From Clostridia bacterium (GTDB taxonomy: Bacteria; Bacillota; Clostridia; UMGS1883), in NCBI GenBank assembly GCA_045661145.1, contig JAZRFC010000075.1:20763-84762 (forward strand): 64,000 bases of DNA, given 5' to 3'. The position numbers were made by a program, and so were the translations under genes. Every line of letters starts with the position of its first letter. Positions within the stretch are counted from its first letter, which is position 1. Below, piece after piece: positions 4,549 through 62,080 of the stretch. Below the pieces are notes generated by a model. That model was not told the origin of the DNA, did not search any database, and saw only the letters and a program-made list of their open reading frames with translations.

Positions 4549-5472
4549 TCAGATTATTTTTTCCACAGCTCTTAATTTACTGCTTCTCGCACGCGGGTTT
4601 TCGTCAAGCTCTTTTTCAGAAGGAACTATGGGTTTCCGTGTGATGCTCTTTACGGAAGGCTTGTTTCCGCAAACGCATACGGGGAAATCTTTTGGGCAGG
4701 TACAACCTTTCTCCAAGGATGCAAAGGTTGTTTTTACAATTCTGTCTTCAAGGGAGTGGAATGTAATTATCCCCATCTTGCCGCCCTTTTTAAGAAGCTC
4801 TGCCCCATCTCTTATTGCCTGTTCCAATATTTTAAGTTCTCCATTGACCTCAATCCTTATCGCCTGAAATGTCCGCTTTGCAGGATGTGGTCCATCCTTC
4901 CTTGCCGAAAGGGGGATTGCCGCTTTTATAATGTCTACAAGCTCAAAAGTTGTTTCTATGGGTGCTGTTTTTCTTCTCTCAACAATAAAATCAACTATTC
5001 TGCTTGCCCACCGTTCCTCTCCGTATGTGGAGATTATCTTAAAAAGCTCTTCTGACGAATAGGTATTTACTATATCCTTTGCGGTAAGGCTGTCGCGACT
5101 ATCCATACGCATGTCCAGTGGCGCGTCCTGCATATAGGAAAAGCCCCTCTCTGCATCGTCAAGCTGAGGTGACGATACACCTAAATCCGCTATAATTCCG
5201 TCAAATTTTTCTATGCCAAGGTTTTTTGCTATGTTTTTGATATTGGAAAAATTATCGTGCACTGCGGTGAAATCTTTTCCCTTAAAACGCTCATTGGCAT
5301 TTTTTATTGCAACTTCATCACGGTCTATTCCGATAACTTGTCCACCACGCTCCAAAATCAGAGATGTATGTCCGCCGCCGCCCAATGTAAAATCGGCATA
5401 TATTCCACCCGGTTTAACATCTATGCTATCAACGGTTTCCTTTAAAAGCACAGTAATATGGTTGAATTCCAC
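4549..5472 (-). CDS. rsmH: 16S rRNA (cytosine1402-N4)-methyltransferase RsmH (MraW)
   Basis: 307 aa with the [23 protein letters not shown]-binding motif, following mraZ. Confidence 0.93.
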
Positions 5473-5486
5473 AATGCTTCCTCCTA

Positions 5487-5921
5487 TCAGAAGCTGATTT
5501 CTTCCAGACTTTCTGCAGCTTCCTCAACAGTCATCTCTTCTTCACTCTGAGAATATTCCATCCAACGCTGTGCGTCCCATATTTCCACGCGCTTGCTGAC
5601 ACCGATAATAACAACCTCTTTTGTAAGAGCTGCATATTCACGGTGAGGCGGTGTAATAAGCACCTTACCCTGCTTGTCCGGTTCACCCTCTGCGGCACCG
5701 GAGAGGAATGTTCTCTGCAAGAAACGGGCACTCTTCTGATTAGAGGGAAGCTTGGCAAGATTGTCAGCAAGCTCTTCCCATACCTCCATAGGATATACAA
5801 ACAGACAGCCCTCAAAGCCCTTGGTGATCATGAACTGTTCGCCAAGCTGCTCACGAAACTTTGCAGGGATAATTACTCTTCCCTTCGCATCGATATTATG
5901 TGAGTACTCGCCTACGAACAT
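5487..5921 (-). CDS. mraZ: Transcriptional regulator MraZ
   Basis: [24 protein letters not shown] is a typical MraZ N-terminus. The ORF extends to 5936, but the start was chosen at the conserved MF(V/M)GEY. Confidence 0.9.
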
Positions 5922-9084: not shown

Positions 9085-9118
9085 TACTATATTTTCATTT
9101 TCTTTTAATTTTTCTTAT

Positions 9119-9147
9119 TAAGGGGGTTATATCCCCTTAATAATTAG
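9119..9147. repeat. Solo copy of the TTAAGGGG-N4-CCCCTTAATAAT palindrome module that terminates the ~180-bp repeat family
   Basis: TTAAGGGGGTTATATCCCCTTAATAAT here, versus TTAAGGGGAGTTCCCCTTAATAAT at 17898-17921 and its reverse complement at 14650-14673. Confidence 0.6.
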
Positions 9148-9644
9148 GATTGCATCTCCTATAATATAAATTGCCAAGCAGGTGTAACGCACACTCTGGT
9201 TGTTGCGACACAAACTTAACGGGAAGAATCCGCATCGAAAACTGATGCGGATTCTTTCCGTTTATTTATGGTATACGCACTAAACTACGGTTTTTGCAAA
9301 TTTTCTGTCGGCTACCGTAAAATTGCGAGCATCATTTTCCTCTGCAGGCGAGCAATTTTAGACGAACAGGCAACTGAGTGTTGCCTTAAAGTCGGCGGTT
9401 CAAAGACAGAAAATTTGCAAAAACAAAACAATACATTTAAAGAAAACCACGCCCAAGAAATATTACGCCCCTGCGAGGGCGTTTCAAGGGGTTATGGGGT
9501 CATAGGGGAGCTAATGGGGAAATCGCAATCCCCCTGCTCCCCTATAAAAGCTTTTTGGCTCCCAAAAGTACACCGTCCCTGCGACTCCGCAGATTGGCTT
9601 GCACTTCCGCAAAATGTTTAAAGAGTTTTAAACATTAAAACGCC

Positions 9645-13118: not shown

Positions 13119-14570
13119 TTATTTTGAATACTGCTGAAGAAGACTATTCTTAACCTGCCACAGTTCGGGGGATAAATCCACATAGTAAGTGTGAGGATTT
13201 TCGAAACGCTTAACTTCGTCCCAGATTGTTTCCACCTGTTCCTTGCAGTATTCACGAATTTCGGAAAGGGTAGGAAGATTTGCCACCTTTTCCCCGTTTT
13301 CAAAAATTTTCACAAGAAGCTTTCTTGCAGTAAAGTTCGTAACCGTCTTACGTTTCCATGTGTGGATAGGGTCAAATATTTCGTAAGGATGGCTACTGTC
13401 TATTTCCTCATTGTGAAGAGTCATAACATCAGCAATTGCCTTGCCCGTTTCATTATCATAAAGTCGGTAAACCTGCTTGAAATCAGGGGTTGTAATTTTT
13501 GCAGGGTTTTCGCTGATTTTGATTTTGGGAACTACTTCACCATTTTCCTCAACACCTACAAGCTTGTACACACCGCCGAAGACGGGCCAGCTTCTTGCGG
13601 TAATAAGCCTTTCACCAACACCGAAAGAGTTAATCTGTGCACCGTGGGAAAGGGTGTCGCGGATGATATATTCATCAAGCGAATTGGATACTACTATACC
13701 GCAATCTTCAAAGCCCTCTTTATCCAATTCCTTGCGTATCTTTTTGGTAAGATAAGTGATGTCACCGCTGTCAATTCGTACTCCCTTGGGTCTGTGTCCC
13801 CTGGGAAGAATTACTTCCTTGAAAACCTTAATTGCATTGGGAAGTCCGCTTTTAAGAACATTGTATGTGTCGATAAGGAGCGTACAACTGTCGGGATAAA
13901 CCTCCGCATATGCCTTGAACGCATCATATTCTGTGGGGAACATCTGCACCCAGCTGTGTGCCATTGTTCCGATAGCAGGGATACCGTAAAGCTCGTCACT
14001 GAGGGTATTTGCAGTACCTACACAGCCCGCAATATATGCAGCCCTTGCTCCTAAGATAGCACTGCTTGCACCGTGCGCACGACGGGAGCCAAATTCCATA
14101 ACTGCTCTACCCTCTGCCGCACGGACAATTCTATTGGTCTTAGTGGCTATAAGTGTCTGATGGTTAACAAGGAGAAGAAGCATCGTTTCAACAAGCTGTG
14201 CCTGAATTGCAGGCCCCTTGACAATTACCAGAGGCTCATTGGGAAATACGGGCGTACCCTCCGGCATTGCCCATACATCGCAGGAAAATTTGAAATTTGC
14301 AAGATAATTAAGAAACTGTTCGTCAAAAAGGTTTCTAGAGCGAAGATATTCTATATCTTCTTTCTCAAATTTAAGGTTTGAAAGATACTCTACTACCTGC
14401 TCCGTTCCTGCCATAATGGCAAATCCTCCGTCATCGGGAACACTGCGGAAATAGAGGTCAAAATAACACACCTTCTCCCCTGTTCCGTTCTTGAAATAGC
14501 CGTTTGCCATAGTAAACTCATAAAAGTCGGCAAGCATTGAGTAATTTTGTTCTTTCAACATAGTAACCAT
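13119..14570 (-). CDS. pncB: Nicotinate phosphoribosyltransferase
   Basis: LADFYEFTMANGYF N-terminus and 483 aa, the typical Firmicute NAPRTase size. Confidence 0.9.
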   Translation of the reverse strand: MVTMLKEQNYSMLADFYEFTMANGYFKNGTGEKVCYFDLYFRSVPDDGGFAIMAGTEQVVEYLSNLKFEKEDIEYLRSRNLFDEQFLNYLANFKFSCDVWAMPEGTPVFPNEPLVIVKGPAIQAQLVETMLLLLVNHQTLIATKTNRIVRAAEGRAVMEFGSRRAHGASSAILGARAAYIAGCVGTANTLSDELYGIPAIGTMAHSWVQMFPTEYDAFKAYAEVYPDSCTLLIDTYNVLKSGLPNAIKVFKEVILPRGHRPKGVRIDSGDITYLTKKIRKELDKEGFEDCGIVVSNSLDEYIIRDTLSHGAQINSFGVGERLITARSWPVFGGVYKLVGVEENGEVVPKIKISENPAKITTPDFKQVYRLYDNETGKAIADVMTLHNEEIDSSHPYEIFDPIHTWKRKTVTNFTARKLLVKIFENGEKVANLPTLSEIREYCKEQVETIWDEVKRFENPHTYYVDLSPELWQVKNSLLQQYSK

Positions 14571-14646
14571 CTCCTGTTTTTTAAAACAGAGTTATTGACA
14601 AAGTCAATAACTCCCCTTCTAACCATAATCCGCCACCTGTAAATTC

Positions 14647-14828
14647 AGGGGATTATTAAGGGGTTTTCCCCTTAATGATAAAATCGCCAAAATCGGGGGC
14701 GTGTACCTCGATTTTGGCTCCTTACAAGGGCTGGCACGGTGAGTGCCGCGCGAGCGTAAGCCCTTTTCTCGAACTGAAATGTTTTATGAAATAAAACTTT
14801 CGGTTCGAAAGGCTGACCTTGTCAGCCG
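14647..14828 (-). repeat. Copy A of a ~180-bp structured intergenic repeat, in inverted orientation
   Basis: The reverse complement aligns to copies B and C through three hairpin modules (details in the findings). Confidence 0.7.
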
Positions 14829-15113
14829 TTAACCGTTCTCAATGGCATCTTCCAGCCAGAATTCTGCAATATCAATTGCCTCAAAAAGGCTTTCACGGGT
14901 TGCTTTCTTGATAACCTTTTCCTTGCCTACTCCCTTGTTGGTGCAGAGGTCTATTGTTACGCTATCCGCAACTTCAAGGTCGCCAACCTTTTTCTTTGAC
15001 TTAATTGTGAAAATGATAATATATTTTTCGCTGAGGTCACCGTAATAAATTGTATCTCCACGGCGTACCATCGGTTTACCCTTATAGGTAAAAAGCTTCT
15101 GTTCTGCTGCCAT
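14829..15113 (-). CDS. Hypothetical small protein (~95 aa)
   Basis: The ORF runs 14829..15149. MAAEQKLFTYKGKPMVRRGDTIYYG... has no recognised family. The start was chosen at the second Met. Confidence 0.5.
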   Translation of the reverse strand: MAAEQKLFTYKGKPMVRRGDTIYYGDLSEKYIIIFTIKSKKKVGDLEVADSVTIDLCTNKGVGKEKVIKKATRESLFEAIDIAEFWLEDAIENG

Positions 15114-15239
15114 TATACTCTCTCCTTTATATAAACAAATAGTTTGCATAATTATTTAGTCTATTCTACCACAAAAGTTTAAAATAGTAAAGTATTTTTT
15201 AATATGTTTCTTCTACGCATATTTTTACCCAAAAAAGTA

Positions 15240-15268
15240 TTGATAATTTTCCCCGATTGTGATATAAT
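15240..15268 (+). promoter_or_regulatory. Sigma-A type promoter of the SRP RNA gene
   Basis: TTGATA, a 17-bp spacer, then TGaTATAAT as an extended -10. Confidence 0.6.
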
Positions 15269-15275
15269 TATAAAG

Positions 15276-15566
15276 CTGTACCGGCCGGGGAGGTAGCGGT
15301 GCCCTGTATCCGCAATCCGCTATAGCGGAGGTTATGTCCCCGATTGAGGCGTTTTTTCAGTACGGCAGGAGCATTTAAGTGGTGTTGACGGTTGGGTCTT
15401 GCGCAATATCGGCCCGTGAACCTTGTCAGGCGGGGAACCGAGCAGCAATAAGCGGTCTCCGGTATGTGCCGCGAGGGTGCCTGACCCGAGCTAACTGAAT
15501 GATTTCCGCGTAGTGAATAACGTCGATTTCGGGGTGTACAGCGAAATGCGGATGGCAATGCCATCC
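15276..15566 (+). ncRNA. ffs: Signal recognition particle RNA (long Bacillus-type scRNA/ffs, ~290 nt)
   Basis: Domain IV motif TCAGGCGGGGAACCGAGCAGC, compared with E. coli TCAGGTCCGGAAGGAAGCAGC. It has GC-rich pairing 5' and 3' ends, a promoter just upstream, and the conserved synteny with dnaX-ybaB-recR found in Bacillus. The ends are approximate. Confidence 0.8.
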
Positions 15567-15690
15567 TTTCGAAGCAAAAGTTTTATTACATAAAAGCATT
15601 TGCTTCGAGAAAAGGGCTTTCGCTCGCGCGGCACTCACCGTGCCAGCCCTTGCAAGGAGTCAAAAACGAGGTACACGCCCCCGTTTTTGA
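15567..15690 (+). repeat. Copy B of the ~180-bp structured repeat (lacks the terminal TTAAGGGG palindrome module)
   Basis: TTTCG, hairpin 2, then GGGCTTTCGCTCGCGCGGCACTCACCGTGCCAGCCC, then CAAGGAGT, then CGAGGTACACGCCCCCG. Confidence 0.7.
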
Positions 15691-15788
15691 TAGATTTTAA
15701 TATGTTTTAAAATAATATTCAAGGGATAAAAACAAATGGTGTTTTATCCCTTTACTTAAATACCAAGTTGTTAAAAGGGGGTATTTGC

Positions 15789-17366
15789 GTGGAGCATCAG
15801 ACTCTTTACAGAAAGTGGCGGCCGAAAACTTTTGACGATGTTGTAGGTCAGCAACACGTTACACAAACCATAAAAAACGAAATAAAGAACAACGTATGCG
15901 GACATGCATTCCTTTTCTGCGGAACACGCGGAACGGGTAAAACCTCCACAGCAAGAATCCTCAGTAAAGCCGTTAACTGTGAAAGCCCCATTGACGGAAA
16001 TCCTTGTAACAAGTGTGCAACCTGTCAGGGAATTGAAAACGGCAGTATAATGGACATTATTGAAATTGATGCCGCAAGCAACAGCGGTGTTGACAATATC
16101 CGTTCCCTCCGTGAAGAAGCGGCATATACAGCCGCCGTTACAAAATACAAAGTGTATATTATCGACGAAGTGCACGCTCTTAGTAAGGATGCGTTCAATG
16201 CCCTGCTGAAGCTTTTGGAAGAGCCCCCTGCTCACGTTAAATTTGTTCTTGCTACGACCGAGGCAAACAAGGTGCTGGGGACAATTTCTTCCCGTTGCCA
16301 ATGCTTTGATTTCAAGAGAATTACTCCCGAAGATATTTATGGCAGACTTGAATATATCTGTAATGCCGAGGGCATTATGGCAGAGGACAAGGCTCTCCGC
16401 ATGATTGCACAGCATGCTGACGGCTCTCTACGTGATGCATTAAGTGCTCTTGAGCCGTGTATTGCTGCAGGCAGAGAGATTGACACGGAATTTGTAGCAG
16501 ATTTTTTGGGCAGAGCCGAAAACCACTCGGCGCTTGAGCTGTGTGGCTGCATTGGCAGAAACGATGCCGCAGGAGTAATAAGCTGTATTGACGATGTTTG
16601 TTCGAGAGGTAAAAACCTCTCTCCGTTCATAGAAACACTTATCCGTGCAATGCGTGATATGCTTGTTATTTCCGTTTCGGGACAATGTAAAAGTGATTTT
16701 GACGAAACTGAATATGAAGCTCTTAAGGAAAGCAGTTCAAACTATTCCACGGAAAAATTGTTATTTGCAATAAAATCCCTTTCTGAAGCTGTTTCGACAG
16801 CAAGATTTATGACAAATCCCAGAGTAGTTTTTGAAGCGGCACTTATTAAACTATGTACAAAGAGCAATGACGGCAGCTACGATGCGCTTCTCAGCAGAAT
16901 TGCAGAGCTTGAAAAAAAGATTGAGAGCGGAAATATTTCCGTAACTCCTGCAAAAACAAAGCCTGCACAGGAAGAAAAATCAGCTCCAAAAGTTGAAGTG
17001 CCTGCCCCCGAGCCTATTCCCGACCTTCCACCCAGCGAATTTTTAAGCAAGATTAAGGGTGCGTGGCCTGAAATCATGACAGACCTGTCCCAGAGCATAC
17101 TGCTCTATACGACGCTTATAAACGTTGAGCTTCGGGAAGAAAACGACAAGTTGGCACTCACATTCCCCGACGATGGAGGAAGAGCAATGCAGGATATGGT
17201 GGCAGAGGGTATTGACCTCATAAACGGAGCAATCAAATCCCACACAGGACTTGATGTACACACGGTAACAAGGTTGCAGAGTGATTTTTCCGCATTTGCA
17301 ACCAAGAAGAAAGAACACGATCCTATGGAAGATATAATGAATCTTCCCATAACAAATATAGAATAA
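15789..17366 (+). CDS. dnaX: DNA polymerase III subunits gamma/tau
   Basis: AAA+ clamp-loader Walker [10 protein letters not shown], with SRP-RNA and ybaB/recR context. The GTG start at 15789 ([11 protein letters not shown]) follows the RBS AAAGGGGG. The ORF-track start is 15768. Confidence 0.92.
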
Positions 17367-17383
17367 GAAAGGATGTTTTAAAT

Positions 17384-17740
17384 ATGGCAAGAGGTGGCGG
17401 ATTTCCCCGTAATATGGGCATGGGCGGTATGGGCAATATGAATAATATGATTAAGCAGGCCCAGAAAATGCAGGAGGAAATGTTAAAGGCACAGGAACAG
17501 CTTAACGAACAGGAATTTGAAGCAAGCGTAGGCGGCGGAGCTGTATCCGTAAAGGCAAACGGCAGAAAAGAGCTTGTTGAACTTACCATTTCTCCTGATG
17601 CAGTTGACCCTGATGATGTTGAGATGCTTCAGGATATGATTGTTTCAGCTGTTAATGAGGTCCTCAGAAAGGCTGATGAAGCTCAGGCAAACAACCTTAA
17701 GGGGCTGACAGGTGGCCTTAACATCCCCGGATTATTCTAA
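17384..17740 (+). CDS. ybaB: Nucleoid-associated protein YbaB/EbfC
   Basis: 118 aa with [19 protein letters not shown], between dnaX and recR. Confidence 0.9.
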
Positions 17741-17744
17741 TACC

Positions 17745-17924
17745 GGATGCAAAGCATCCTTTCGCAACAAAAGTTTTACTGCGTAAAAGCATTCGTTGCG
17801 AGATTCGGGCTTTCGCTCGCGCGGCACTCACCGTGCCAGCCCGTTCAAGGAGTTAAAATCGAGGTACACGCCCCCGATTTTAACGGATTCAAACATTAAG
17901 GGGAGTTCCCCTTAATAATCCCCC
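17745..17924 (+). repeat. Copy C of the ~180-bp structured repeat (full length)
   Basis: Starts with the hairpin GGATGCAAAGCATCC right after the ybaB stop and ends with TTAAGGGGAGTTCCCCTTAATAATCCCC. Confidence 0.7.
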
Positions 17925-17955
17925 TTGAAAGTTTTTCTCTTAGGAGTTGAATTAA

Positions 17956-49530: not shown

Positions 49531-49563
49531 AACATCACTCCGTTCTTTTTTCTTTGCTAAAGT

Positions 49564-49610
49564 ATATCATATAATGATATAAATTTTATTTTTATTGCAT
49601 AAAATGCACC
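49564..49610 (-). promoter_or_regulatory. Partial copy of a conserved promoter box (shared with 51713-51760 and 61847-61893)
   Basis: TATATCATATAAT...TTGCATAAAATGCAC. Confidence 0.4.
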
Positions 49611-49669
49611 TTTCTCTGTAAAATTGGTAAAAAAATAAATGCCGGACCCGAAGTTCGGCACTTATCTCA

Positions 49670-50956
49670 TTAAGAATTAAATATTATAAAAGATAATACA
49701 AATTCATTATCTGCTTGGTCTATTTTAAGCACATGATTATATTTTGAGAGTGCTTGTTTGATGTTTTCAAGACCAAAACCGTGATTTTCTTTATCTGTTT
49801 TTGTTGTTTTCATAGAAAGTTTTTTGCCTTTGCTTATGGAGTTAGAAATTTTGCAAAGGATAGCATCTTCTTCAAAGATAACAGATAGCTTTATATGCTT
49901 TTGTTCAGATTTGATTTTTTCACAAGCTTCAATGGCATTATCAAGACTATTACCAAAAATAATACATATATCTGTAGCATCAATAGACATTTTTTCAGGA
50001 ATCTGAACCGTCGATTCAAATTTAATATTCTTTTCTTCTGCCAGTGCTTTTTTTGTGCTTATAATAGCATCCAATGCAACATTTCCGGTATCAATAGTTT
50101 CGCCGGATATAAGTTTTTCACTCATTTCATCTATGTATTGAATACCGCCTTCATAGTCATTTCTTTGAAAGTAACCTCTTAAAGCAACCCAATGATTCTT
50201 TATATCGTGACGAAAACCTTTTATCTGATTTTGCATGACAAGAATATCGTCAAGATGTTTTGTCTGAGATTTTATCTGCTCTTTATATAATTGCTCTCGA
50301 TTCTCATATTCAGATTGCTTCGAAATATGTTCATATAAATACATAGAAGCAAATGCACTTGCAATAAGTCCAATACAAGTAAATAAAGCTACATTAAATA
50401 ATAATGGCTCATTTATATTATACATAAGTCTAAAAAGAACAAAAGCTGTTGTTATAGCAGGGGTAAAAACTACAACCAAAAGAATCCAATATGATGTTTG
50501 GACAAATAGTTTTTGATTTTTATATCTTAATCTTACAAAGTAGGTTATAAGCAAAAATATAAATTTTGAAGATAGTGCACCTGCAATCCAAAGAAGCTTA
50601 TTATCTATTAATTCAGATGTAGGAACGCCAAAAACAAGACCTAAAACATATAAAACAAACAATTCGCAACATCCGTTTAAAGTTATACCTATTATCGGAA
50701 TTAGTATCTTATTCTTTATGCTTCCTTTAAATAGCAGAGAAAAGAGAAATGCAACGAAATACATAATCAATGTATTTTGTAAAGTTCCAAAGTATAAATA
50801 AAAGCTTATATCAATAGTAACAGCAAGTACCAAATATCCAACAAAATATAGATATTTGGGCAGATCATCTTTTTTTTGCATAAATGTATCCAATATCATA
50901 TAAAAACAAGCTGATTCTATAAACCCTGTTAATAATTCAACTATCGTAAGCGTCAT
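49670..50956 (-). CDS. AgrC/LytS-like GHKL sensor histidine kinase (HK1), ~6 TM sensor domain
   Basis: A polytopic N-terminus is followed by an H-box (RHDIKNH) and an HATPase_c_5-type C-terminus. It overlaps the upstream LytTR regulator gene by 4 nt. Confidence 0.85.
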   Translation of the reverse strand: MTLTIVELLTGFIESACFYMILDTFMQKKDDLPKYLYFVGYLVLAVTIDISFYLYFGTLQNTLIMYFVAFLFSLLFKGSIKNKILIPIIGITLNGCCELFVLYVLGLVFGVPTSELIDNKLLWIAGALSSKFIFLLITYFVRLRYKNQKLFVQTSYWILLVVVFTPAITTAFVLFRLMYNINEPLLFNVALFTCIGLIASAFASMYLYEHISKQSEYENREQLYKEQIKSQTKHLDDILVMQNQIKGFRHDIKNHWVALRGYFQRNDYEGGIQYIDEMSEKLISGETIDTGNVALDAIISTKKALAEEKNIKFESTVQIPEKMSIDATDICIIFGNSLDNAIEACEKIKSEQKHIKLSVIFEEDAILCKISNSISKGKKLSMKTTKTDKENHGFGLENIKQALSKYNHVLKIDQADNEFVLSFIIFNS

Positions 50957-51672
50957 ATCCTATACTTCCTCTCTTTGAAATTAATAAAAGCAGTAGCAAC
51001 TTGCTTTTTGAATGTTCTGCTGATTGGGATAACCTTATCAGCATCATACAGAACGAGTTCTGTTTCTTTAATTTCACGGATATGATTGAGATTGATAACA
51101 AAAGATTTATGTACTTGAATAAACATAGTCTTGTCTATGCTATCATAAAGCTCTGCCATTGTTTTACAGATTTTATGTACTTTATCTTTTGTGTGAATGT
51201 GAATATAGTGCGCCTGACATTCAAAGTAAAGTATATCTTCACAAAAGAGTCTGATTTTGTTTCTGTTTTCTGTAAATACAAAAGTAGTACGTTCTTCCGA
51301 AAGTTTCTTTACTATATCGGCAAACACTTTATCAAATTCATCGTTAGAAACGGGTTTTATTAAAAATCTAAACGGCGAACACTCGAAGCAAGCCTGCATA
51401 TACTTTGTATGGCTTGTTACGAACACAATTATGACATGCTTATCAATTTTTCTGATAATATTAGCGGTTTCAATACCATTTAAGATATTCATTTCCATAT
51501 CAAGAAAAATTACATCATAATTGCCTTCGCCCATATTATACATCTTCACTAATTCTTCGCCGCTATAAAAGGCATCACAACTGACTTCGGGTTCGTTTTT
51601 ATCTAAAATATATTTCTCAAGAATATTTATGTATTCTTGGTTATCATCACATATTGCAATGTTCAACTCCAA
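50953..51672 (-). CDS. LytTR-family response regulator (AgrA-like; RR1)
   Basis: A receiver domain (LDMEMNILNGIE) with a C-terminal LytTR DNA-binding domain (FIQVHKSFVINLNHIREI). Confidence 0.88.
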   Translation of the reverse strand: MELNIAICDDNQEYINILEKYILDKNEPEVSCDAFYSGEELVKMYNMGEGNYDVIFLDMEMNILNGIETANIIRKIDKHVIIVFVTSHTKYMQACFECSPFRFLIKPVSNDEFDKVFADIVKKLSEERTTFVFTENRNKIRLFCEDILYFECQAHYIHIHTKDKVHKICKTMAELYDSIDKTMFIQVHKSFVINLNHIREIKETELVLYDADKVIPISRTFKKQVATAFINFKERKYRI

Positions 51673-51712
51673 TCATCCTCCTTTAGTTCTCACAAAAAAC
51701 TTTAAAGTTTAA

Positions 51713-51760
51713 TATATCATATAATAATGTATTCTTTGTGTTTTTTGCATAAAACGACAC
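51713..51760 (-). promoter_or_regulatory. Conserved ~47-bp promoter box upstream of the RR1-HK1 operon
   Basis: TATATCATATAATAATGTATTCTTTGTGTTTTTTGCATAAAACGACAC is near-identical (43/47) to 61847-61893. Confidence 0.55.
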
Positions 51761-52041
51761 TTAATTCGCAAAACTTGCATTTAATTATAACACAAACCGT
51801 GATACTTAACAAGTTTGCCCTGGCTATAACTATTTGTCTGACCGTCAAGCCAAGCACCGCGGATATATTTTTCGGAGACTGTTGGTATTATGCTATATAA
51901 TTTCCCATTTCCCTAACCTCATATTCTCTGTGCTTAAGGGCTGTACAAAGTTTTGATAACTATAATTCTAAATGATATATTTTCAAAATAGGTTTTTCAC
52001 TATATTTACTTTATCACAAATCTTACTTATTTTCCTTAGCT

Positions 52042-52764
52042 TTAACTCTCGTAAAAACTCGAATCTTCAAAAACATCTTTACTTACAATATATTCACACA
52101 ACATATCACGACCGTCACAATCAATAATCTCACATTCTTTATTGAGAACTAGCCCGCACTTTTCGCACAACATGTCTAGAAACTTAACAACACCTTCATA
52201 GCATTTTTCCATATATGTTTTTGTAAACATAGTTGCCAGCGATTCTTTAGTTGTCCCCATCGGTATTTTTGCATCGCTTGTTATATAATGACCTTCGGCA
52301 ATCTCATTGTTTTTAAAGTGAGTTATATCATTTCTTAACTTTATTATAGATTTTGTAAGTGAATAATAATTATCTCTCTTGATTTCAGAAAAATCCACAT
52401 GAAACATTGTGCAAATAAGTTGAAGTTTTACATTATGTGAGGTTTTTAGTATATCTAACTCCGTACACCCGAGTCTTCTAGTAATAATGGTATTAAGAGC
52501 AGTTTCGTATAAATTAACAATAAATGTTGCTGCGATAGAACCATGATAAAGATTTTTTAGAAAATCTTCTTCGTTTATTTCATCGCAAGAACCATCATCA
52601 TAACGTAAAACATTATCATCATTCATATATGAAATTGCATCTTCAACAATTTTTGTTGATAACTTTTCAAAATTCAAAAATATACCAAAAGCCATAATTA
52701 GCACCCCTCTTTTATCATAAATCGAACTACAGCGGATATGGAGAAAAATCACATTGTTTTTCAA
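52042..52764 (-). CDS. Hypothetical protein with a HEPN-like Rx4H motif
   Basis: Predicted all-alpha. It contains LRNDITHF (R-x4-H). The probable start is MAFGIF at ~52695. No other family was recognised. Confidence 0.5.
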   Translation of the reverse strand: MKNNVIFLHIRCSSIYDKRGVLIMAFGIFLNFEKLSTKIVEDAISYMNDDNVLRYDDGSCDEINEEDFLKNLYHGSIAATFIVNLYETALNTIITRRLGCTELDILKTSHNVKLQLICTMFHVDFSEIKRDNYYSLTKSIIKLRNDITHFKNNEIAEGHYITSDAKIPMGTTKESLATMFTKTYMEKCYEGVVKFLDMLCEKCGLVLNKECEIIDCDGRDMLCEYIVSKDVFEDSSFYES

Positions 52765-52846
52765 CCTTATGTAATATTATACCATTGTCACAAGAAAACA
52801 ACAAGGGTAAGGAGTTTATATTCCCTACCCTCAAAATTAACTTTTA

Positions 52847-54574
52847 TCATTCCACTTTTTCAGAGATAATTACTCTGCGCATATTCTCATCCCACACAAC
52901 GTTCATATCAAGTGCATCTGCAACAAATCTTACAGGGACAAGTGTACGGTTGTTGATAATAACACCAGGAGAATCAAGACTGACAGGAGCATTGTTAACC
53001 AAAGCTATATTATCTCCGATACCAAGTTTAATCACTGCTTCATCCTTAACTGCCGTCACGGAACTTGTATCTGAATCCCAGGAAATTTCACAGCCAAGTG
53101 TTTCAAATATTTTTCTCATCGGAACCAGAACTCTGCTGTTGATTATGACGGGAGTTGTATCAAAATACAAATCAAGTCCGTTTACATAAACGGTAATCGG
53201 TCTTTCAGCGGACGACTTTTTTTCAGAAGCATCATCTGGGAGTGTTAAAATTCCTGACTTTGTAATGCCTGTATTGTTATCAAGAATTGAAAAGCTGTAC
53301 TTATTCTTTTCTATATAACCTAAACTGAAAAACTCAAAAGGCGTTATTTCAACACCGTATTTGTTAATCAGCCCTACGCCCGAGTCTTTCTTCGAAGCTT
53401 CCGCAACACCATTCTTAAAGGGCTGAATATCCGAATAGATAAACTCTGTAATTCTGTTTCCGTTGTTATCCAGTACTGCTTTATCTGTTGCCGGAGGAAT
53501 CCGCCCTGTGTAGCCGCTAATTATATTTATCCCGATAAGAACTTCGCCATTGACCATTACATTATAATCTTTCCGAGGAATTTTTATTTGTCCGTTTTTA
53601 TCTATATGATACCATTTTTCTGCTTCCGGTTCCTCACAAACCTTTGCAAGACCGTTTTGAAATTCCCATGCATGACTATATTTGAAAGGTATAACAAGCT
53701 CCCATTCCTTGTTTATATATCCGTATTTTCCTTCTTCTTCGGAATACACCAATGCAAGATTGTCGCTGAATTTATAAGGGAAGCTTCCTGCAAAGTAATA
53801 AGAATTACTTTCATCATTCAGATTTATATACCTCCAACCCTTATCAAAGACAGCAACAATGTCGTCATCACAAATTTCCAAATCATCATAAACACATGGG
53901 AGAATTTCCTCATGCTCGTCACCTATAACACCGTACTTTCCGTCTTTCTTTACCTTTGTGATTTTATACGGCCGACCAGTATGGTATTCATCATAAGTTT
54001 TCACATTTAAAGGATTTCCTTTTTTATGAAAGCATTGACGCACACCACCTTTTATGGTATGTATAACTCCGCACATTTCGTGGATATAATCATATTCGCA
54101 CGGTAAAAGCTCTTTCCCGTTTTCATCTATCATACCATATTTTTCACTTGAAACAACAATTGAATATCCGTCGGTTATCGGAGAAACAATATCGTATTTA
54201 CTTACATCGAAAAGTGCATTTCCTGAAGCATCAATTATTATTTTTGAACCGCCTGAGCTTACAAAATATTTTCCCTCCGAGAAAACATACGCTTCATCAT
54301 AGATAAACGGAGCTATTGTATTTCCTGAAGTATCTATAAGACCTTGTCTCATAAGAAGGTTTTTATCCGTTACAGTAAGACGCGCGACCCCGTTTTCCCA
54401 TGAATAATCAATACACGTGCTTCTGTAGTCTGTTTCAGGCTCAATCCACTTTAACGAAATCCCGTAGTCTTTTTCTAAAGATTCTGCAGATACTTCTGCT
54501 AAAACGGGAAAAGCAAACAGAATCTGAAACAGCAAAACTGCCAATATGCTTCCTGTTATAAAGCCTTTTTTCAT
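52847..54574 (-). CDS. Secreted protein with WG-containing (KWG-like) repeats and two C-terminal copper-amine-oxidase N-terminal-like stalk domains
   Basis: Signal peptide, then repeated ..KYGYINKEWELVIPFKYSHAWEFQNGLAKV.. type WG repeats, then C-terminal ..VLVPMRKIFETLGCEISW.. and ..TLVPVRFVADALDMNVVW... Confidence 0.65.
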   Translation of the reverse strand: MKKGFITGSILAVLLFQILFAFPVLAEVSAESLEKDYGISLKWIEPETDYRSTCIDYSWENGVARLTVTDKNLLMRQGLIDTSGNTIAPFIYDEAYVFSEGKYFVSSGGSKIIIDASGNALFDVSKYDIVSPITDGYSIVVSSEKYGMIDENGKELLPCEYDYIHEMCGVIHTIKGGVRQCFHKKGNPLNVKTYDEYHTGRPYKITKVKKDGKYGVIGDEHEEILPCVYDDLEICDDDIVAVFDKGWRYINLNDESNSYYFAGSFPYKFSDNLALVYSEEEGKYGYINKEWELVIPFKYSHAWEFQNGLAKVCEEPEAEKWYHIDKNGQIKIPRKDYNVMVNGEVLIGINIISGYTGRIPPATDKAVLDNNGNRITEFIYSDIQPFKNGVAEASKKDSGVGLINKYGVEITPFEFFSLGYIEKNKYSFSILDNNTGITKSGILTLPDDASEKKSSAERPITVYVNGLDLYFDTTPVIINSRVLVPMRKIFETLGCEISWDSDTSSVTAVKDEAVIKLGIGDNIALVNNAPVSLDSPGVIINNRTLVPVRFVADALDMNVVWDENMRRVIISEKVE

Positions 54575-54599
54575 ACACGGTAGTCCCCTTTATCCAAAG

Positions 54600-56255
54600 T
54601 TATTTCTTCAAATCTACTTCCACAAGCATTTTATCATCCGAGGGAGTGTACAACAGCTTATTTTCGTGAATAAAAATGTTATAGTCGTAAATGGAGTCGC
54701 TTGAACGAAAAATATTTGTCGGACTAGAGAATACACAGGTGCGTATATCCTTGTCACCGTCCGTGTCCCCGTAGGAGCTTGTTACAAGCATTCCACCTTC
54801 AACATATGATTCTGTGGGAAGAGTTGTTTCAAAAAGGTGTGCTCCTGCACCGCTTCCGATGCCATAATTAAGATACATTTCAACAATGGATTTTTCATCG
54901 CTTTTTGTATGAAGATAGAGGGTATCACCTCTGAGAACACCGTTGTAAAGAGGGAGTGAACTTTCATTAATCACAATTGTTTTTCCGCTTGCGCTGCTGT
55001 AACGGTACATCTTGCCGTCCTGTGAATATACAATCATTTCGCTGTTTGATTTTGTGTCGTTGTCCCAGCCTGTGAAAGCAAGGAAACTTAATACATTTTC
55101 AATCATCGGAGTAAGTGTTTCTGTGTCAAGATTGTAGCGATAAAGAGAACTGTTATTTTCGTCATTTGTATTATATCCCGTAAGATAAATGTTGTTTCCG
55201 ATTATCTGAATATCATTATACTCGTGACCTTCGCTGCCATGCCAGCTGTCGTAAGAAGGATGCTTTTTTTCTGCAAAAACCGTGTTTTCTGCAAGGATTT
55301 CGGTATATTCTTCGCTTCCGTCCTTATAATAAATAACTCTTGAAGCACCGGGACCGCCGCCACGGAAAACCCTTACCGAGTATCCTTCAAGGTCATAAAC
55401 CTTTTCGTTGCCTCCGATAAAGCTATGGAAATAATCACCTTCAATAGAATCTTCGATAGTGCCGTCGGGATTTATTTTATAGCGGTAATCTCTGCCCATT
55501 GAAGCACCTGTGCGGAAGGAGAAGTACATTCCGCTATCCTGAAGTGAAAAGTTAATAAGATTGTTTCCGAAATCAGCATAACCGTTGGGTACGGTAGTAT
55601 GAATAAGCTCATTTGCGGTAGGATTGTCAACGGGTGTACGATAAATTTTTCTGTCGTTTCCCGTGTAGTAATAATATGTTCCGTCCGTTGCGGCGTTAGG
55701 CATAATCTGAGTTCTTAAATCGGGAAGGCCAAGTGTTTTACAGATATAATTATCCGCAGTTATCACAAGTCCGTTTTTGTCATCATAACTGTATTTCCAC
55801 TCGAATTCATCAACTGCAAAACGCCATGTGAGAGGGAAGTAAGTAACATCACGGAAAAGTATCAGGGGATATTTCTCATTTGTGTTGTCAATTTCTTTTC
55901 CGTTTACAATAATATTGAAATTACAAATAGTAATTTCGTTTGACTTACCGTTTTTCCATTCCCATTTATAGTTGCGGTATGCACCCGAAATATTTTCCTT
56001 TGTTATTTCAAGGGTGTTTGTATCGCTACTCCACTTTGTAGCAACACCGAGGAAACGGCAATCGTAATATGTCATGGGGAAGTACACAATATCCTTGTAC
56101 TGAAGCAGGGGATACTGTCTGTATGAATTATCCACGCTTTGTCCGGAAAGTGTAACGGAGCAGGCAGGGATATTTGCAACCTCTTTTGCACAAACATTTG
56201 ATGCAAAACAAAGGATGATTAGTGTGAATAAAATTGCAACTTTTTTCATGTTCAA
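54600..56255 (-). CDS. Secreted stalk-domain + beta-propeller-like protein (DUF5050-like), paralog 1
   Basis: A signal peptide is followed by two stalk-domain copies (QYPLLQYKDIVYFPMTYYDCRFLG and KYPLILFRDVTYFPLTWRFAVDEFEW) and a Tyr/Gly-rich repetitive C-terminal region. The first ~170 aa are about 80% identical to 56252..57988 and 60176..61804. Confidence 0.7.
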   Translation of the reverse strand: MNMKKVAILFTLIILCFASNVCAKEVANIPACSVTLSGQSVDNSYRQYPLLQYKDIVYFPMTYYDCRFLGVATKWSSDTNTLEITKENISGAYRNYKWEWKNGKSNEITICNFNIIVNGKEIDNTNEKYPLILFRDVTYFPLTWRFAVDEFEWKYSYDDKNGLVITADNYICKTLGLPDLRTQIMPNAATDGTYYYYTGNDRKIYRTPVDNPTANELIHTTVPNGYADFGNNLINFSLQDSGMYFSFRTGASMGRDYRYKINPDGTIEDSIEGDYFHSFIGGNEKVYDLEGYSVRVFRGGGPGASRVIYYKDGSEEYTEILAENTVFAEKKHPSYDSWHGSEGHEYNDIQIIGNNIYLTGYNTNDENNSSLYRYNLDTETLTPMIENVLSFLAFTGWDNDTKSNSEMIVYSQDGKMYRYSSASGKTIVINESSLPLYNGVLRGDTLYLHTKSDEKSIVEMYLNYGIGSGAGAHLFETTLPTESYVEGGMLVTSSYGDTDGDKDIRTCVFSSPTNIFRSSDSIYDYNIFIHENKLLYTPSDDKMLVEVDLKK

Positions 56256-57964
56256 TCCTCCTGTTCTTCAAACTTGACCTCTACCACACGACCGAGGTCT
56301 TCGGGGATGTAGAGAAGCTTGTCGCTTTCAAGAAAGTAGTTTGGGTTAATAATGTCGCTTGATTTGAACGGCTCGGGAGTTCCGCGGAAAATGCAGGTAT
56401 GAATATCTTCCCCTGGCATTTCGCCATAGGAACGGGTAATAAGCTTACCATCTCTTATATCTGTATCTGCACCGAGAAAGGTATCAAGGAGGGTGCGCCC
56501 GTCGTATTTGCATATTGCATATCTATCGTATTCTTTTACAATTGTATGGATTCTGTCATAGTCCTGAGTGCAAAGATATATTTTCTCCCCGATGGATATT
56601 CCTGTGTTAATGGGAAGACTGTTTTCATCAACGACTACATTTTCCTTGCTTTCAACAGAATAACGATATAATTTTCCATCACGGTAATAAAGTACTATAT
56701 CAGAATCTTTTTTGGAAGCATTATCCCAACCACGGAAAACAAAGAAAGAAGAAATATTATTAAGCACAGGTGAAACAGTTCCTGTTTGTGTGTCGACACA
56801 GTATAGATTACTTGGACTGTCATCTGATACATCCTGTATCTTCTCTTCAGTATCGTCAATCTGAGGATATCCTGTTAAATAAATATTTTCGTCTGTTACC
56901 TGAGGAACACTGTAGTAAGTCCAACGTTCCTGATTTTTATAACGCTGTTCACCGAAACGTATGTTTTCAAGAACAATCTGTTTGTCAATGCCGTCTTTTG
57001 TGTAATATACAATGGTGCTTCCGGGGTGTCCGCTATTATATCCCGATACGGAAAAACCGTCAAAATTCAGAGTGTAATGATTATATCCAGAGTATTTGTT
57101 TTGTGACCTTTCGATTTTTTCGAATGTTCCGTCAGAATTGATTTTATAATTATAGTCAATTCCCGTTGATGCTCCGCCTATATGATAAGAAACATATACC
57201 TGACCGTTGTCATAAGAAAAATATGCCATTGTTTGGTCAGAAATGTAGTTGTCGGGAATGGTGTGAATGCATTCATACTGAGATAAGTTGTGTGCGGGAG
57301 CGCGATAAATTTTGTTGTCTGTACACTCGTAATAGTAGTATTTTTTGTCGGCAGCGGCTGAAACAATCTTGTGATGATCGGGGACGAAAACAGGGAGTGT
57401 TCGGCAAATGTAGTTATCTGCGCTTATCTTAAGTCCGCTTTCCTCAGTATAGCTGTATTCCCAGCCGAATTCATCAACTGCAAAACGCCATGTGAGAGGG
57501 AAGTAAGTAACATTGCGGAAAAGTATAAGTGGATATTCCTCATTTTTATTGTCAATTTCTTTTCCGTTTACAATAATATTGAAATTACAAATAGTAATTT
57601 CATTTGACTTTCCGTTTTTCCATTCCCAGTTGTAGTTACGGTATGCACCCGAAATATTTTCCTTTGTAATTTCAAGGTTGTTTGTATCTCCGTTCCACTT
57701 TGTAGAAACACCGAGGAAACGACAATCGTAGTATGTCATGGGAAAATACACTATATCCCTAAATTGCAGAAGTGGATACTGACGATTAATACTGTCAACC
57801 TCTTGACCATTGAATGTAACTTTACACTTAGGAATGTACGCGTATTCTTCTACCTCTCCTATGGATTCATCACTGAATCCATAGGGATTCTGTGCCAACA
57901 CACACAAGGGAATCAGTATTATAATTATAATTAAAGAAATGACTTTCACAAGGTTCTTTTTCAT
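56252..57964 (-). CDS. Secreted stalk-domain + beta-propeller-like protein, paralog 2
   Basis: Same architecture as paralog 1. The start is probably MKKNLVKV at ~57964; the ORF extends to 57988. Confidence 0.7.
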   Translation of the reverse strand: MKKNLVKVISLIIIIILIPLCVLAQNPYGFSDESIGEVEEYAYIPKCKVTFNGQEVDSINRQYPLLQFRDIVYFPMTYYDCRFLGVSTKWNGDTNNLEITKENISGAYRNYNWEWKNGKSNEITICNFNIIVNGKEIDNKNEEYPLILFRNVTYFPLTWRFAVDEFGWEYSYTEESGLKISADNYICRTLPVFVPDHHKIVSAAADKKYYYYECTDNKIYRAPAHNLSQYECIHTIPDNYISDQTMAYFSYDNGQVYVSYHIGGASTGIDYNYKINSDGTFEKIERSQNKYSGYNHYTLNFDGFSVSGYNSGHPGSTIVYYTKDGIDKQIVLENIRFGEQRYKNQERWTYYSVPQVTDENIYLTGYPQIDDTEEKIQDVSDDSPSNLYCVDTQTGTVSPVLNNISSFFVFRGWDNASKKDSDIVLYYRDGKLYRYSVESKENVVVDENSLPINTGISIGEKIYLCTQDYDRIHTIVKEYDRYAICKYDGRTLLDTFLGADTDIRDGKLITRSYGEMPGEDIHTCIFRGTPEPFKSSDIINPNYFLESDKLLYIPEDLGRVVEVKFEEQED

Positions 57965-57977
57965 ATATACCACACCT

Positions 57978-59258
57978 TTACACGTCAAATATTATAAACG
58001 ACAATACAAATTCGTTTTCTTTCTGTTCTATGTTCAACACATGCTTGTACTTTGAAAGCGCTGCCTTGATATTTTCGATCCCATACCCATGGTTTTTTCT
58101 GTCCTGTTTCGTTGTTTTGAGACTCATAGATTTATTTTCCGCACAAGAATTTGATATTTTACATATAACACAATCTTCATCATATATAATCTGGATACAT
58201 ATATATTTTTTGTCTTTCAGTTTTTCACACGCCTCAATAGCATTATCCAGCGCATTTCCGAAAATAACACATACATCTATAGGTTCAATTCCAAGATTCT
58301 CATAAATTTGAATATTGGTTTTAAATTCTATTTTCTTACTTTCCGCAATTAACAGTTTTGAGTTAATTATTGCATCTAATGCAATATTTCCCGTCGAAAC
58401 ACTTCTTTGCGTTTTGGAAATAGCTTCATCCATAGATGCTATGTATGCCTGACCCCCTTTGCTGTCGTCACGTCTGAAATATTCTTCTATTGCTGCCATA
58501 TGATTTTTTATATCATGCCTGAATTTTCGCAGTTCTCCTTGCATGAAAAGGATCTCATCCAAGTGCTTTGCCTGTGATTTAATCTGCTGTTCGACCACTT
58601 GTTGTCTTCCAGTAATTTCTGCCTGCTTTGCCATATTTTCATACAAATAAATCACGAAGAAATTACTGAGCATCAATCCCACAGAGCATATAACAGTCAG
58701 TATACTCAATTCCTGTTTTGGATTATGGTATGAGAGATTAAAAAACAAAAACTCTGCTACTGTGGTACTCGCAAACACCACAAAAAACAAAATCCAGTAT
58801 GAAGCAGTTTTCTTAGATTTGTTTTTACCGCCATAACAAACAATCTTGAATACGGCAAATCCAAATATTTTGGAAATCACCGTTCCCAGATATCTGAGTA
58901 TATCTGACTCCATTAATTGCTCAGTTGTTATTCCAAAAATTGCAGAAAGTCCGAACATGGTAATTATTTCTGTAATAACGCTTAATAAAATTCCCAATGC
59001 TGCAATAACCGGACGAAGCAAAAACGGGCATCTGTAAAAAAGCGAAGAAGTTATGATTACTGAAAAAATAACCACAGCGTTCCATATACCGAAATTGAAA
59101 AACATATTACCTATAAAAATACACACCGCCATTATACAAATAACAAACGGACGAATCACACTATTTAGTACTTCTTTTTTTTCAAAATATGTATCCATCA
59201 GCATAAGGTATAAATACGCCTCAACAAAACAAGTCATAAGTGTCATCAAAATATTCAT
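57978..59258 (-). CDS. AgrC/LytS-like GHKL sensor histidine kinase (HK2), paralog of HK1
   Basis: Same architecture as HK1. The H-box region KHLDEILFMQGELRKFRHDIKNH aligns with HK1 KHLDDILVMQNQIKGFRHDIKNH. Confidence 0.85.
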   Translation of the reverse strand: MNILMTLMTCFVEAYLYLMLMDTYFEKKEVLNSVIRPFVICIMAVCIFIGNMFFNFGIWNAVVIFSVIITSSLFYRCPFLLRPVIAALGILLSVITEIITMFGLSAIFGITTEQLMESDILRYLGTVISKIFGFAVFKIVCYGGKNKSKKTASYWILFFVVFASTTVAEFLFFNLSYHNPKQELSILTVICSVGLMLSNFFVIYLYENMAKQAEITGRQQVVEQQIKSQAKHLDEILFMQGELRKFRHDIKNHMAAIEEYFRRDDSKGGQAYIASMDEAISKTQRSVSTGNIALDAIINSKLLIAESKKIEFKTNIQIYENLGIEPIDVCVIFGNALDNAIEACEKLKDKKYICIQIIYDEDCVICKISNSCAENKSMSLKTTKQDRKNHGYGIENIKAALSKYKHVLNIEQKENEFVLSFIIFDV

Positions 59259-59971: not shown

Positions 59972-60175
59972 TTTGTCTCTCCCTCAAATGAATTTATTAA
60001 ATTATAACAGAAATTGCAATGTTTTCTCATATAATTACGCAGACAACACTTTTAGATTCCTAAATTACACAACATTTATATATACTTTCCGCAAATGTGA
60101 GCCATAACTAATGCAATCAAAACAGTTCTTATGAATTTTAATTTATTTTAAAGTTAAAAGGGAAAATTAATTCAA

Positions 60176-61804: not shown

Positions 61805-61846
61805 AATATACCACCTTTAGTTCACTTAAAAATTCTTGAATTTTAG

Positions 61847-61893
61847 TATATCATATAATAATGTATTCTCTGTGTTTTTTCATAAAAAGACAC
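61847..61893 (-). promoter_or_regulatory. Conserved ~47-bp promoter box upstream of paralog 3
   Basis: TATATCATATAATAATGTATTCTCTGTGTTTTTTCATAAAAAGACAC. Confidence 0.55.
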
Positions 61894-62080
61894 TTTATTT
61901 GTAAAACTCGTAATTAATTATATCACTATTCTTTAAATTTAACAATCTATATTAATATACATTATATGGATGCAAAGAAAATATATTTATTTCTTTTTCT
62001 TCTTATGCTTTGCCCATATTTTTTCACCTCCTGCGAGACAAAGCATACCACATAAGAGAGAGGAAGTCCACGAAGTTTTT

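Follow-up and report, generated by a model that had tools for sequence, protein, structure and literature searches.

The DNA analysed here, 64,000 nucleotides of a Clostridia bacterium genome (assembly GCA_045661145.1, contig JAZRFC010000075.1, positions 20,763 to 84,762; hereafter the window), carries three copies of a structured intergenic element of about 180 nt. Pfam placed pncB (13119-14570), dnaX, ybaB, and recR in this region, and Rfam placed the large signal recognition particle (SRP) RNA at 15276-15541. A hypothetical open reading frame (ORF) of 106 amino acids (14829-15149, reverse strand) lies between pncB and the SRP RNA. Copy A (14645-14830, reverse strand) is full length and lies between the stop codon of the hypothetical ORF (TAA, 14829-14831) and pncB; its first hairpin starts 1 nt past the stop codon, and a host terminator follows at 14585-14612. 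Copy B (15547-15690, forward strand) starts about 9 nt past the 3′ end of the SRP RNA. Copy C (17742-17926, forward strand) is again full length and lies between ybaB (stop codon 17738-17740) and recR. Copy A and copies B and C are on opposite strands within 3.3 kb.

A repeat finder, exact k-mers, and a covariance model built for the element (R1) all returned three copies, and a palindrome search added one solo terminal palindrome, at the places given in a preliminary description of this DNA, which had also named the neighboring genes correctly. The repeat finder paired 15562-15703 with 17755-17896 at 85% identity, and paired the inverted segment 14688-14828 with both of these at 83-87%. In the window, the 20-mer GGCACTCACCGTGCCAGCCC, which is invariant, is present three times, as is the 17-mer CGAGGTACACGCCCCCG, against 0.00-0.01 expected occurrences. 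The bit scores of R1 were 203 for copy A, 184 for copy C, and 169 for copy B, with only about 20 bits on the reverse strand, and no fourth copy was found over the 64 kb. The palindrome TTAAGGGG-N-CCCCTTAA also occurs three times, in copies A and C and at the solo site (9118-9140).

The element is a member of a larger family. A scan for the exact core 20-mer over one genome per species yielded 98 loci, which were stored as blocks of about 8 kb around the matches and are designated here by L numbers. Of these, 97 belong to metagenome-assembled genomes (MAGs) of uncultured Clostridia/Oscillospiraceae, and one is a stray match in a cyanobacterium, which is about the chance expectation. The element-bearing genomes are some 23 MAGs with up to 16 loci each, derived from goat, roe deer, and other samples. 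Across the window and the loci, R1 gave 99 matches below E=1e-30. Plasmids and phages (searched with blastn) and viral contigs (searched by pattern) held no element.

The gene content around the copies provided the most unusual property of this family, which was absent from the preliminary description: the element starts at a stop codon. We asked for an upstream ORF in the same orientation, 60 codons or longer, with the end of its stop codon falling anywhere from 13 nt ahead of the first base of the first hairpin (H0) to 6 nt past it. This arrangement was found for 89 of the 99 R1 matches, which amounts to all 89 testable copies that follow an ORF, every one of them in the sense orientation. 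Of the ten others, six could not be scored, standing at block edges, and four come after the SRP RNA. The rate was 6.9% at positions and strands drawn at random from the same DNA, and 11 of 99 on the antisense side of the copies, which is the background rate. The gap between stop codon and H0 is usually 1-4 nt. In about 17 copies the ORF ends at a TGA inside H0 itself (GGATGAC/GGCTGAC, or the start of TGATGGC), and in L076 the native GGTTAA (Gly-stop) has been replaced by the H0 start GGCTGA. The stop codons used are 57 TAA, 23 TGA, and 9 TAG; since all three occur, there is no single fixed trinucleotide target such as TAA. Besides the stop codon, the left flank has no conserved bases, and the distance varies from -13 to +6 nt.

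The upstream genes belong to 99 Pfam families of core housekeeping function. They include DnaK, GrpE, GroES, GroEL, GyrB, ParE, RNase J, IF2, and EF-P, as well as AlaRS, PPDK, GAPDH, FolD, SHMT, MnmE, RadC, and YbaB. The family is dispersed over at least 40 different gene ends across many genomes. On the downstream side, a canonical terminator comes after 38 copies, and an ORF, with no terminator between, comes after 31 copies that bear the last hairpin (H4). Of the 25 copies that lack H4, 18 have a terminator precisely in its place. Copy B is one of these, and the earlier observation that it lacks the palindrome holds: a terminator-like hairpin, GGGATAAAAAC...GTTTTATCCC (15723-15750, with TTT to 15753, forward strand), takes its place. 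Copies at the same SRP RNA position are present in L032, L057, and L082, likewise with a terminator in the place of H4. Judged by these positions, the transcription unit always appears to include the element, which follows the stop codon and precedes the terminator or the ribosome binding site (RBS) of the next gene.

The anatomy of the element was derived from two alignments. An alignment of 95 copies delimits a conserved block of about 180 nt, (A)GC-GGATGAC...AACAATCCCC(T), and folding of a 53-sequence alignment (A2) resolves this block into five hairpins, H0 to H4. H0 (consensus GGATGACAAGGTCATCC) is followed by TTTCG, that is, by three U residues, with a UCU variant in 15% of copies. H1 is an imperfect hairpin of about 40 nt with at least four subtypes. 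H2 has an outer stem GGGCU/AGCCC, an inner stem GGCAC/GUGCC, the loop UCACC, and an invariant 5′ internal loop of 11-12 nt (CUUUCGCUCGCGC). A single-stranded linker with AGG(A/U)G leads to H3, a ten-pair stem with the near-invariant loop AGGUACACGCCCC, and H4 (UUAAGGGG-N4-CCCCUUAA) is followed by the tail CAAUCCCC. The near-invariant parts are the H2 internal loop, the H2 loop, the H3 loop, and the C-rich tail, and across the 95 copies conservation peaks in the center (H2 and the H3 loop) and not at the ends. All inverted repeats within copies are local hairpins, and the two ends share at most a GGAT core.

In copy A (reverse strand), H0 is GGCTGACAAGGTCAGCC followed by TTTCG (14811-14827), H1 is TTTCGAACCG...GTTCGAGA, about 40 nt long and imperfect (14767-14810; inverted repeat I1), and H2 spans 14728-14763, with outer stem GGGCT/AGCCC, inner stem GGCAC/GTGCC, loop TCACC, and the invariant 5′ internal loop TACGCTCGCGC. 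H3, GCCAAAATCG-AGGTACACGCCCC-CGATTTTGGC, lies at 14686-14718, and H4, TTAAGGGG-N4-CCCCTTAA, lies with its C-rich tail TAATCCCC at 14647-14675. Copy B (forward strand) consists of H0 to H3 only, at 15550-15566, 15567-15610, 15614-15649, and 15659-15690. Copy C (forward strand) has H0 at 17745-17759, H1 at 17760-17803, H2 at 17807-17842, H3 at 17852-17884, H4 at 17896-17915, and the tail at 17916-17924; its fold z-score is -7.3, and about -7 on either strand.

These boundaries differ from those first proposed. The hairpin GGATGGCAATGCCATCC and its variants had been taken for the terminator of the upstream gene, with the element beginning behind it; it is conserved and covaries across about 95 copies, and is the H0 of the element. 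Copy B, formerly placed from 15567 onwards, hence starts near 15550, since H0 belongs to it, and the canonical host terminators lie downstream of the element instead of ahead of it. What had been listed as a separate third module is the loop and 3′ arm of the fourth hairpin, AAAAYCG-AGGTACACGCCCC-CGRTTTT.

Strong covariation was detected in the helices. Within A2, 97.4% of 2593 helix cells are standard pairs, and 24 of the 49 pairs show changes on both sides. All five hairpins covary. The covariation score was 0.258, falling to 0.04-0.07 when the partners were slid by 1-3 columns, and none of 500 shuffles equaled it. The top mutual-information pairs all lie inside helices, and mutual information revealed no pseudoknots or long-range pairs beyond them; the apparent complementarities of CAAGG in the H0 loop or linker with CCTTG, and of the linker with the tail, displayed no covariation. 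The H0 pairs change across copies between A:T and C:G and between A:T and G:C. Seven of the ten modelled H1 pairs have changed on both sides; the compensatory changes first noticed in this hairpin are real and extend to all helices. The base of H1 also displays a swap from U-G to C-A (80 against 15 sequences). The inner stem of H2 was fixed by the search pattern, hence it was checked separately, in second copies within the stored blocks and in a metagenome scan that left out the common version. The alternatives ACCGC/GCGGT, ACTGC/GCAGT, and AGCGC/GCGCT were recovered, perfectly complementary and with the loop UCACC kept, which makes four fully complementary versions in all.

No described RNA family accounts for this structure. 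Rfam 15 gave no match on the copies at the gathering threshold, and at E<=10 only weak matches far below the gathering scores (microRNA precursors, and PYLIS_6/FasX at the 3′ edge of copy B); none of its riboswitches, ribozymes, small RNAs (sRNAs), omega/reRNAs, or group I/II introns came near its gathering score. Literature searches with the core sequence strings produced no match, a keyword search produced no prior description, and a search on repetitive extragenic palindromic (REP) elements and stop codons produced only general papers on transfer-messenger RNA. The preliminary description was thus right about a structured, covarying family of intergenic repeats without a known assignment: there are about 100 copies in related genomes, covariation is far above the controls, and Rfam has no credible match. 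Its host-terminator idea proved wrong, and its option of a miniature inverted-repeat transposable element (MITE) is not supported. We would place the element among the interspersed structured intergenic elements and candidate cis-RNAs, as a type that seems distinct from each described family.

Comparison of flanks showed that the same gene junctions occur with and without the element. The ybaB-recR junction is filled in the window and in five further genomes, holds a remnant in L082, and is empty in the closest relative L057 (91% flank identity). L002 and L022 have no element at the SRP-dnaX junction; there the SRP RNA is followed by a terminator of its own. Between the hypothetical ORF and pncB, the window and L002 carry a full element, as does L057, whose copy runs off the edge of its block. 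L026 retains a 5′ remnant, L077 and L082 retain 3′ remnants, and the site is empty in L032 and L068. The empty sites show that the element, when present, sits between the stop codon and the terminator or RBS. Comparison of filled and empty sites at six loci displayed no target-site duplication (TSD), and no terminal inverted repeats (TIRs) were found within copies.

Copies at shared loci are at least as well conserved as the coding DNA beside them. In 65 same-locus pairs across species, the mean identity of the element was 85%, against 81.5% for the upstream 300 nt, and single pairs reached 99-100% with flanks at 84-93%. Copy C and its counterpart in L026, for instance, are 99.5% identical, with flanks at 84% and 87%. 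Different loci within one genome share a mean identity of 76% and a maximum of 93%. At shared loci, 71 pairs have changed on both sides and 39 on one. By inspection and not by a count, the H1 subtype tends to follow the genome more than the locus. Judged by these comparisons, this is an old family kept by selection and not a currently active transposon. Speaking against the MITE option are the lack of TIRs and TSDs, the 100% sense orientation, the lack of near-identical copies within a genome, and the strong same-locus conservation.

One further observation concerns the ybaB-recR junction. The whole intergenic region (window 17742-17955 against L026 3080-3292, MAG SVJW01) is about 99.5% identical, including the 30 nt between the element and the start codon of recR. 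This tract may reflect either very strong constraint or recent recombination.

Based on these findings, we tentatively postulate, at somewhat less than even odds, that the element is a structured module embedded in transcripts, belonging to 3′ untranslated regions (3′ UTRs) and intercistronic spacers and acting in cis. Position and orientation argue for a transcribed sense-strand element, which would form the first part of the 3′ UTR or of the spacer. A central conservation peak and invariant loops beside covarying stems are the usual sign of a functional RNA that is read through its loops, and the compensated helices with conserved unpaired nucleotides expected of a generic structured cis-RNA are present. 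The most likely role would be that of a boundary or insulator, which either stops 3′-to-5′ decay from reaching the stop codon or sets the processing between cistrons. A host factor would read the C-rich tail together with the loops of H2 and H3 and the invariant internal loop of H2. H0 lies 0-6 nt from the stop codon and would have to be unwound by the terminating ribosome, which would tie the folding of the module to translation of the gene ahead of it. The probable origin of the family is a single spread as a repeat, in the ancestor of this clade, since when it would have been kept by selection and not by ongoing transposition.

Two diverged relatives bear on which parts would matter most. 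Metagenome contigs of a higher-GC organism carry these relatives in L103 (620-800) and L104 (30-235). Both keep H2 and the AGGAG linker, and L104 has H4 and the tail in addition; at the places of H0, H1, and H3 both carry other hairpins. What they keep points to H2 and H4 with its tail as the putative functional core.

Several observations weigh against a cis-acting RNA. Among 4277 helix cells, 4144 are Watson-Crick pairs, 25 are G-U, 64 are A-C, and 44 are other combinations; these counts are of cells and not of independent events, being partly inherited within subfamilies. G-U is thus not favored over A-C, which is unusual for RNA and fits hairpins of single-stranded DNA equally well; the tolerance of G-U above A-C that is generic for RNA is not displayed by this family. 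The A-C excess stems mostly from one inherited mismatch in an H1 subtype. This Watson-Crick bias appears to weaken the RNA interpretation without refuting it, and it stands as a point against. Tertiary contacts would be invisible to covariation because the loops are invariant. Transcription through the element is read from its position only. Barriers made of hairpins alone would need neither a fixed orientation nor 180 nt, and both L103 and L104 stand after a terminator-like hairpin. Many of the compensated changes within loci could be due to replacement of copies by gene conversion. Lastly, the start at 0-6 nt from the stop codon is accounted for by none of the explanations considered here, the rivals included.

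A bolder version of the cis-acting RNA is that the family constitutes an undescribed RNA class that marks the 3′ boundaries of ORFs, with coupling between H0 and the ribosome, a dedicated factor or self-processing, and deployment in dozens of core operons; we consider this possible but unlikely. We know of no other bacterial repeat that is sense-only, starts at the stop codon, joins invariant loops to covarying stems, and is more conserved at shared loci than the neighboring genes. If it acts as RNA, it would be a new and widely deployed cis element that shapes how genes for chaperones, replication, and translation are expressed, and it would offer a test case for the interplay of translation termination and 3′-UTR structure. 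A role as DNA would instead suggest that some mechanism of insertion can find the ends of genes. The hosts are abundant uncultured gut bacteria, and R1 allows direct tests in metatranscriptomes.

Known repeats that are transcribed share part of this behavior. Among them are the REP/BIME (REPIN) elements, multi-copy extragenic palindromic repeats transcribed at gene 3′ ends, which stabilize upstream mRNA in enterobacteria and pseudomonads; according to Liang and Deutscher, REPs within about 15 nt of the stop codon reportedly affect translation of the upstream gene. REPs are, however, single palindromes of 20-40 nt that occur in both orientations, are often clustered, and are moved by RAYT transposases. 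The present element is a 180-nt unit of five hairpins with invariant loops, in one orientation and one copy per site, with no RAYT seen in the 8-kb blocks around matches, and no short palindromic unit in both orientations was found. BOX (S. pneumoniae), ERIC/IRU (enterobacteria), and bcr1 (B. cereus group) are likewise structured, modular, transcribed intergenic repeats of 100-200 nt with module-loss variants and a suspected role at the RNA level. They differ by occurring in either orientation, by not being tied to stop codons, and in several cases by TIRs or TSDs, and they have no sequence or Rfam similarity to the element. Mycobacterial MIRUs lie between operon cistrons in a fixed orientation to transcription and overlap the upstream stop codon. 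This operon polarity and stop-codon overlap are shared with our element, which is a single non-coding hairpin-rich unit, unlike the MIRUs, which are tandem direct repeats of 40-100 bp with small ORFs for translational coupling.

The main rival to a cis-acting RNA is non-autonomous mobile DNA, of MITE, REPIN, or IS200/IS605-PATE-like kind, whose single-stranded hairpins would be read by a transposase encoded elsewhere and which would be essentially selfish. The sense bias would then arise from the non-template strand exposed past the stop codons of highly transcribed genes. Dispersal to at least 40 gene ends is what such an element would produce, as are presence, absence, and partial remnants at one locus in related species, modular deletion derivatives, nearly pure Watson-Crick helices with G-U no commoner than A-C, and the insertion of another small palindromic repeat in one copy. 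Against this stand the same features that tell against an active transposon, namely no TIR or TSD, within-genome identity of 93% at most (no young copies), and same-locus copies more conserved than coding flanks. Moreover, orientation in every case follows the upstream gene, whichever DNA strand that gene is on, the best-conserved part is the center and not the ends, and three different stop codons are used, which leaves no single fixed trinucleotide target. No transposase was seen in the 8-kb blocks around copies, and plasmids, phages, and viral contigs lack the element. We therefore regard mobile DNA as unlikely, though the strongest of the rivals.

The features that define known mobile elements were compared with those of the family. 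The TIRs matched to an insertion sequence, TSDs, and either-orientation insertion of near-identical copies that mark MITEs are missing, and there is no fixed 4-5-nt target at a constant distance 5′ of the left hairpin, as in IS200/IS605 PATEs. Integron attC sites (for example, the Vibrio cholerae repeats) resemble the element in being folded imperfect palindromes right after or overlapping the stop codon of each ORF, with strict co-orientation, species-specific sequence, and Watson-Crick-conserved structure. In attC, however, R''/L'' pair with L'/R' across the whole site, the cores are RYYYAAC/GTTRRRY, and the sites form cassette arrays beside intI. Pairing in the element is confined to five local helices, with GTTAAGG/CCTTAAC present only as the adjacent arms of H4 at 4-nt spacing, and the genes ahead of it have core housekeeping functions and keep their synteny (dnaX-ybaB-recR, groES-groEL, dnaK). 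No cassette array with intI was found; DnaK, GroEL, GyrB, YbaB, and RNase J lie upstream, in conserved operons.

Production of 3′-UTR-derived sRNAs that act in trans is improbable. Their C-rich motifs (the H3 loop ACGCCCCCG and the tail AAUCCCC) would act on G-rich RBSs, in the way that RsaE/RoxS of Firmicutes use C-rich sRNA motifs. The sense position at mRNA 3′ ends, the terminator or H4 as a 3′ hairpin, and the invariant C-rich loops and tail beside covarying stems are in keeping with this, but dozens of copies with the same seed per genome would be redundant, about half of the copies are intercistronic, without a terminator and with no evident 3′ end, and the H3 loop of L104 differs.

Somewhat less probable still is a conditional terminator, attenuator, or riboswitch-like sensor, in which H0 and UUU would form a terminator or pause site and H2/H3 a core that binds a ligand or protein. 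Riboswitches typically combine covarying stems with a conserved core, TTTCG comes right after H0, and at least 31 copies stand directly upstream of a co-oriented ORF. Yet H0 precedes the putative sensor, which therefore cannot act on H0 during transcription, about 38 copies have a canonical terminator behind them and no downstream gene that could be regulated, and no riboswitch of Rfam matches. H0 does resemble an intrinsic terminator as a GC-containing hairpin right after a gene with UUU behind it. It differs in having only three U residues (UCU in 15%), and H4 has no U tract; the canonical terminators with long stems and U-rich tracts come after 38 copies. Neither H0 (followed by TTTCG or TCTCG) nor H4 (followed by AACAATCCCC) has a U tract of about five, and a terminator scan of the window called neither, which suggests that neither hairpin is a credible terminator itself.

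We give very little weight to a new self-cleaving ribozyme or other catalytic or processing RNA that would cut at the ORF boundary. The multiple copies, the invariant nucleotides of loops and internal loop beside covarying helices, and the location at cistron boundaries and behind the SRP RNA, where processing makes sense, would suit it; the hairpins stand in series with no demonstrated junction or pseudoknot, and no Rfam ribozyme matches. Least probable is a site that acts at the DNA level where highly transcribed genes end, by binding protein or through topology, like the BIME/REP elements that bind gyrase and IHF in E. coli: the association with highly expressed housekeeping genes and the Watson-Crick-only palindromes agree with it, but strict sense orientation and a start at the stop codon would be unnecessary, and the element is always before the terminator and never after it.

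Other candidates were considered and discarded. H0 is not a separate stop-proximal family, as only five H0-like hairpins lack a core within 140 nt, and these look like diverged, interrupted, or truncated copies. H4 is not an independent repeat (3 solo occurrences against 54 within elements). Among 219 model matches, none was a split copy flanking an ORF, as an autonomous element would be. A small ORF from the ATG of H0 was ruled out by reasoning: a large minority of copies has GGCTGAC and therefore no ATG, the frame is shifted by indels in H1, and third-position variation is missing from the core. A sigma-54 promoter, read as GGCAC-N5-GTGCC, is discounted since the stem covaries to ACCGC/GCGGT and others, which destroys the GG/GC elements. 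The 106-aa ORF, considered as a partner protein, has no Pfam, NCBIfam, or PDB match; it would be 95 aa if started from the second Met, and it occupies the same position in at least seven related MAGs. By eye only, and not relied on here, H0 and the linker (GGTCATCCTTTC) resemble the 3′ end of 16S rRNA, and the H3 loop resembles its 1400 region.

The solo H4-like palindrome of the window, TTAAGGGG-GTTATAT-CCCCTTAA-TAAT (9118-9144, forward strand), has a 7-nt loop, and R1 found no other module near it. It is probably the 3′ remnant of a decayed copy; the 3′ remnants between the hypothetical ORF and pncB in L077 and L082 are of a like kind. Close to it lies a promoter-like site with a good match, TTAATA-17-TATAAT (9137-9165), and about 50 nt past this site a strong terminator hairpin (9218-9262) stands just ahead of an ORF at 9268. 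The segment 9137-9262, on which Rfam gave no match, could be a short leader, an attenuator, or an sRNA.

Some copies have been rearranged. Internal deletions that join short direct repeats recur in L021, L090, L081, L089, L004, and L077. Their joints run from CCTTTCGC after H0 to CTTTCGC in H2, and from GCCAGCCCTT to CCCCTTAAC, and an identical internal deletion occurs at one locus in different species. In L069, the 3′ end of a pyruvate phosphate dikinase gene, the element, and a terminator have been duplicated in tandem as a unit of about 700 bp, which results in two element copies (4707-4875 and 5409-5574) that are about 91% identical. An unrelated palindromic repeat of about 84 nt, GGGGACGGGG..TTTTTGTAA.CCGCAGG.GCAACAAAAA..CCTGTCCCC, is present in L046 (6856-6940), L064 (about 5776), L074 (about 7461), and L082 (5171-5255), and does not occur in the window. 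In L082 it is inserted in the H1 loop of the SRP-dnaX copy, and in L046 it occupies the post-stop position that is held by the main element in L076.

Repeats of another kind occupy 49560-62100 of the window. A 300-nt stretch is present three times (55732, 57396, and 61284) with 66-87% identity, a 132-nt pair lies at 49679 and 57987, and an AT-rich upstream block (TATATCATATAATAATGTATTC...) is repeated at 49563, 51713, and 61847, which suggests a paralogous gene cluster whose members may share promoter regions.

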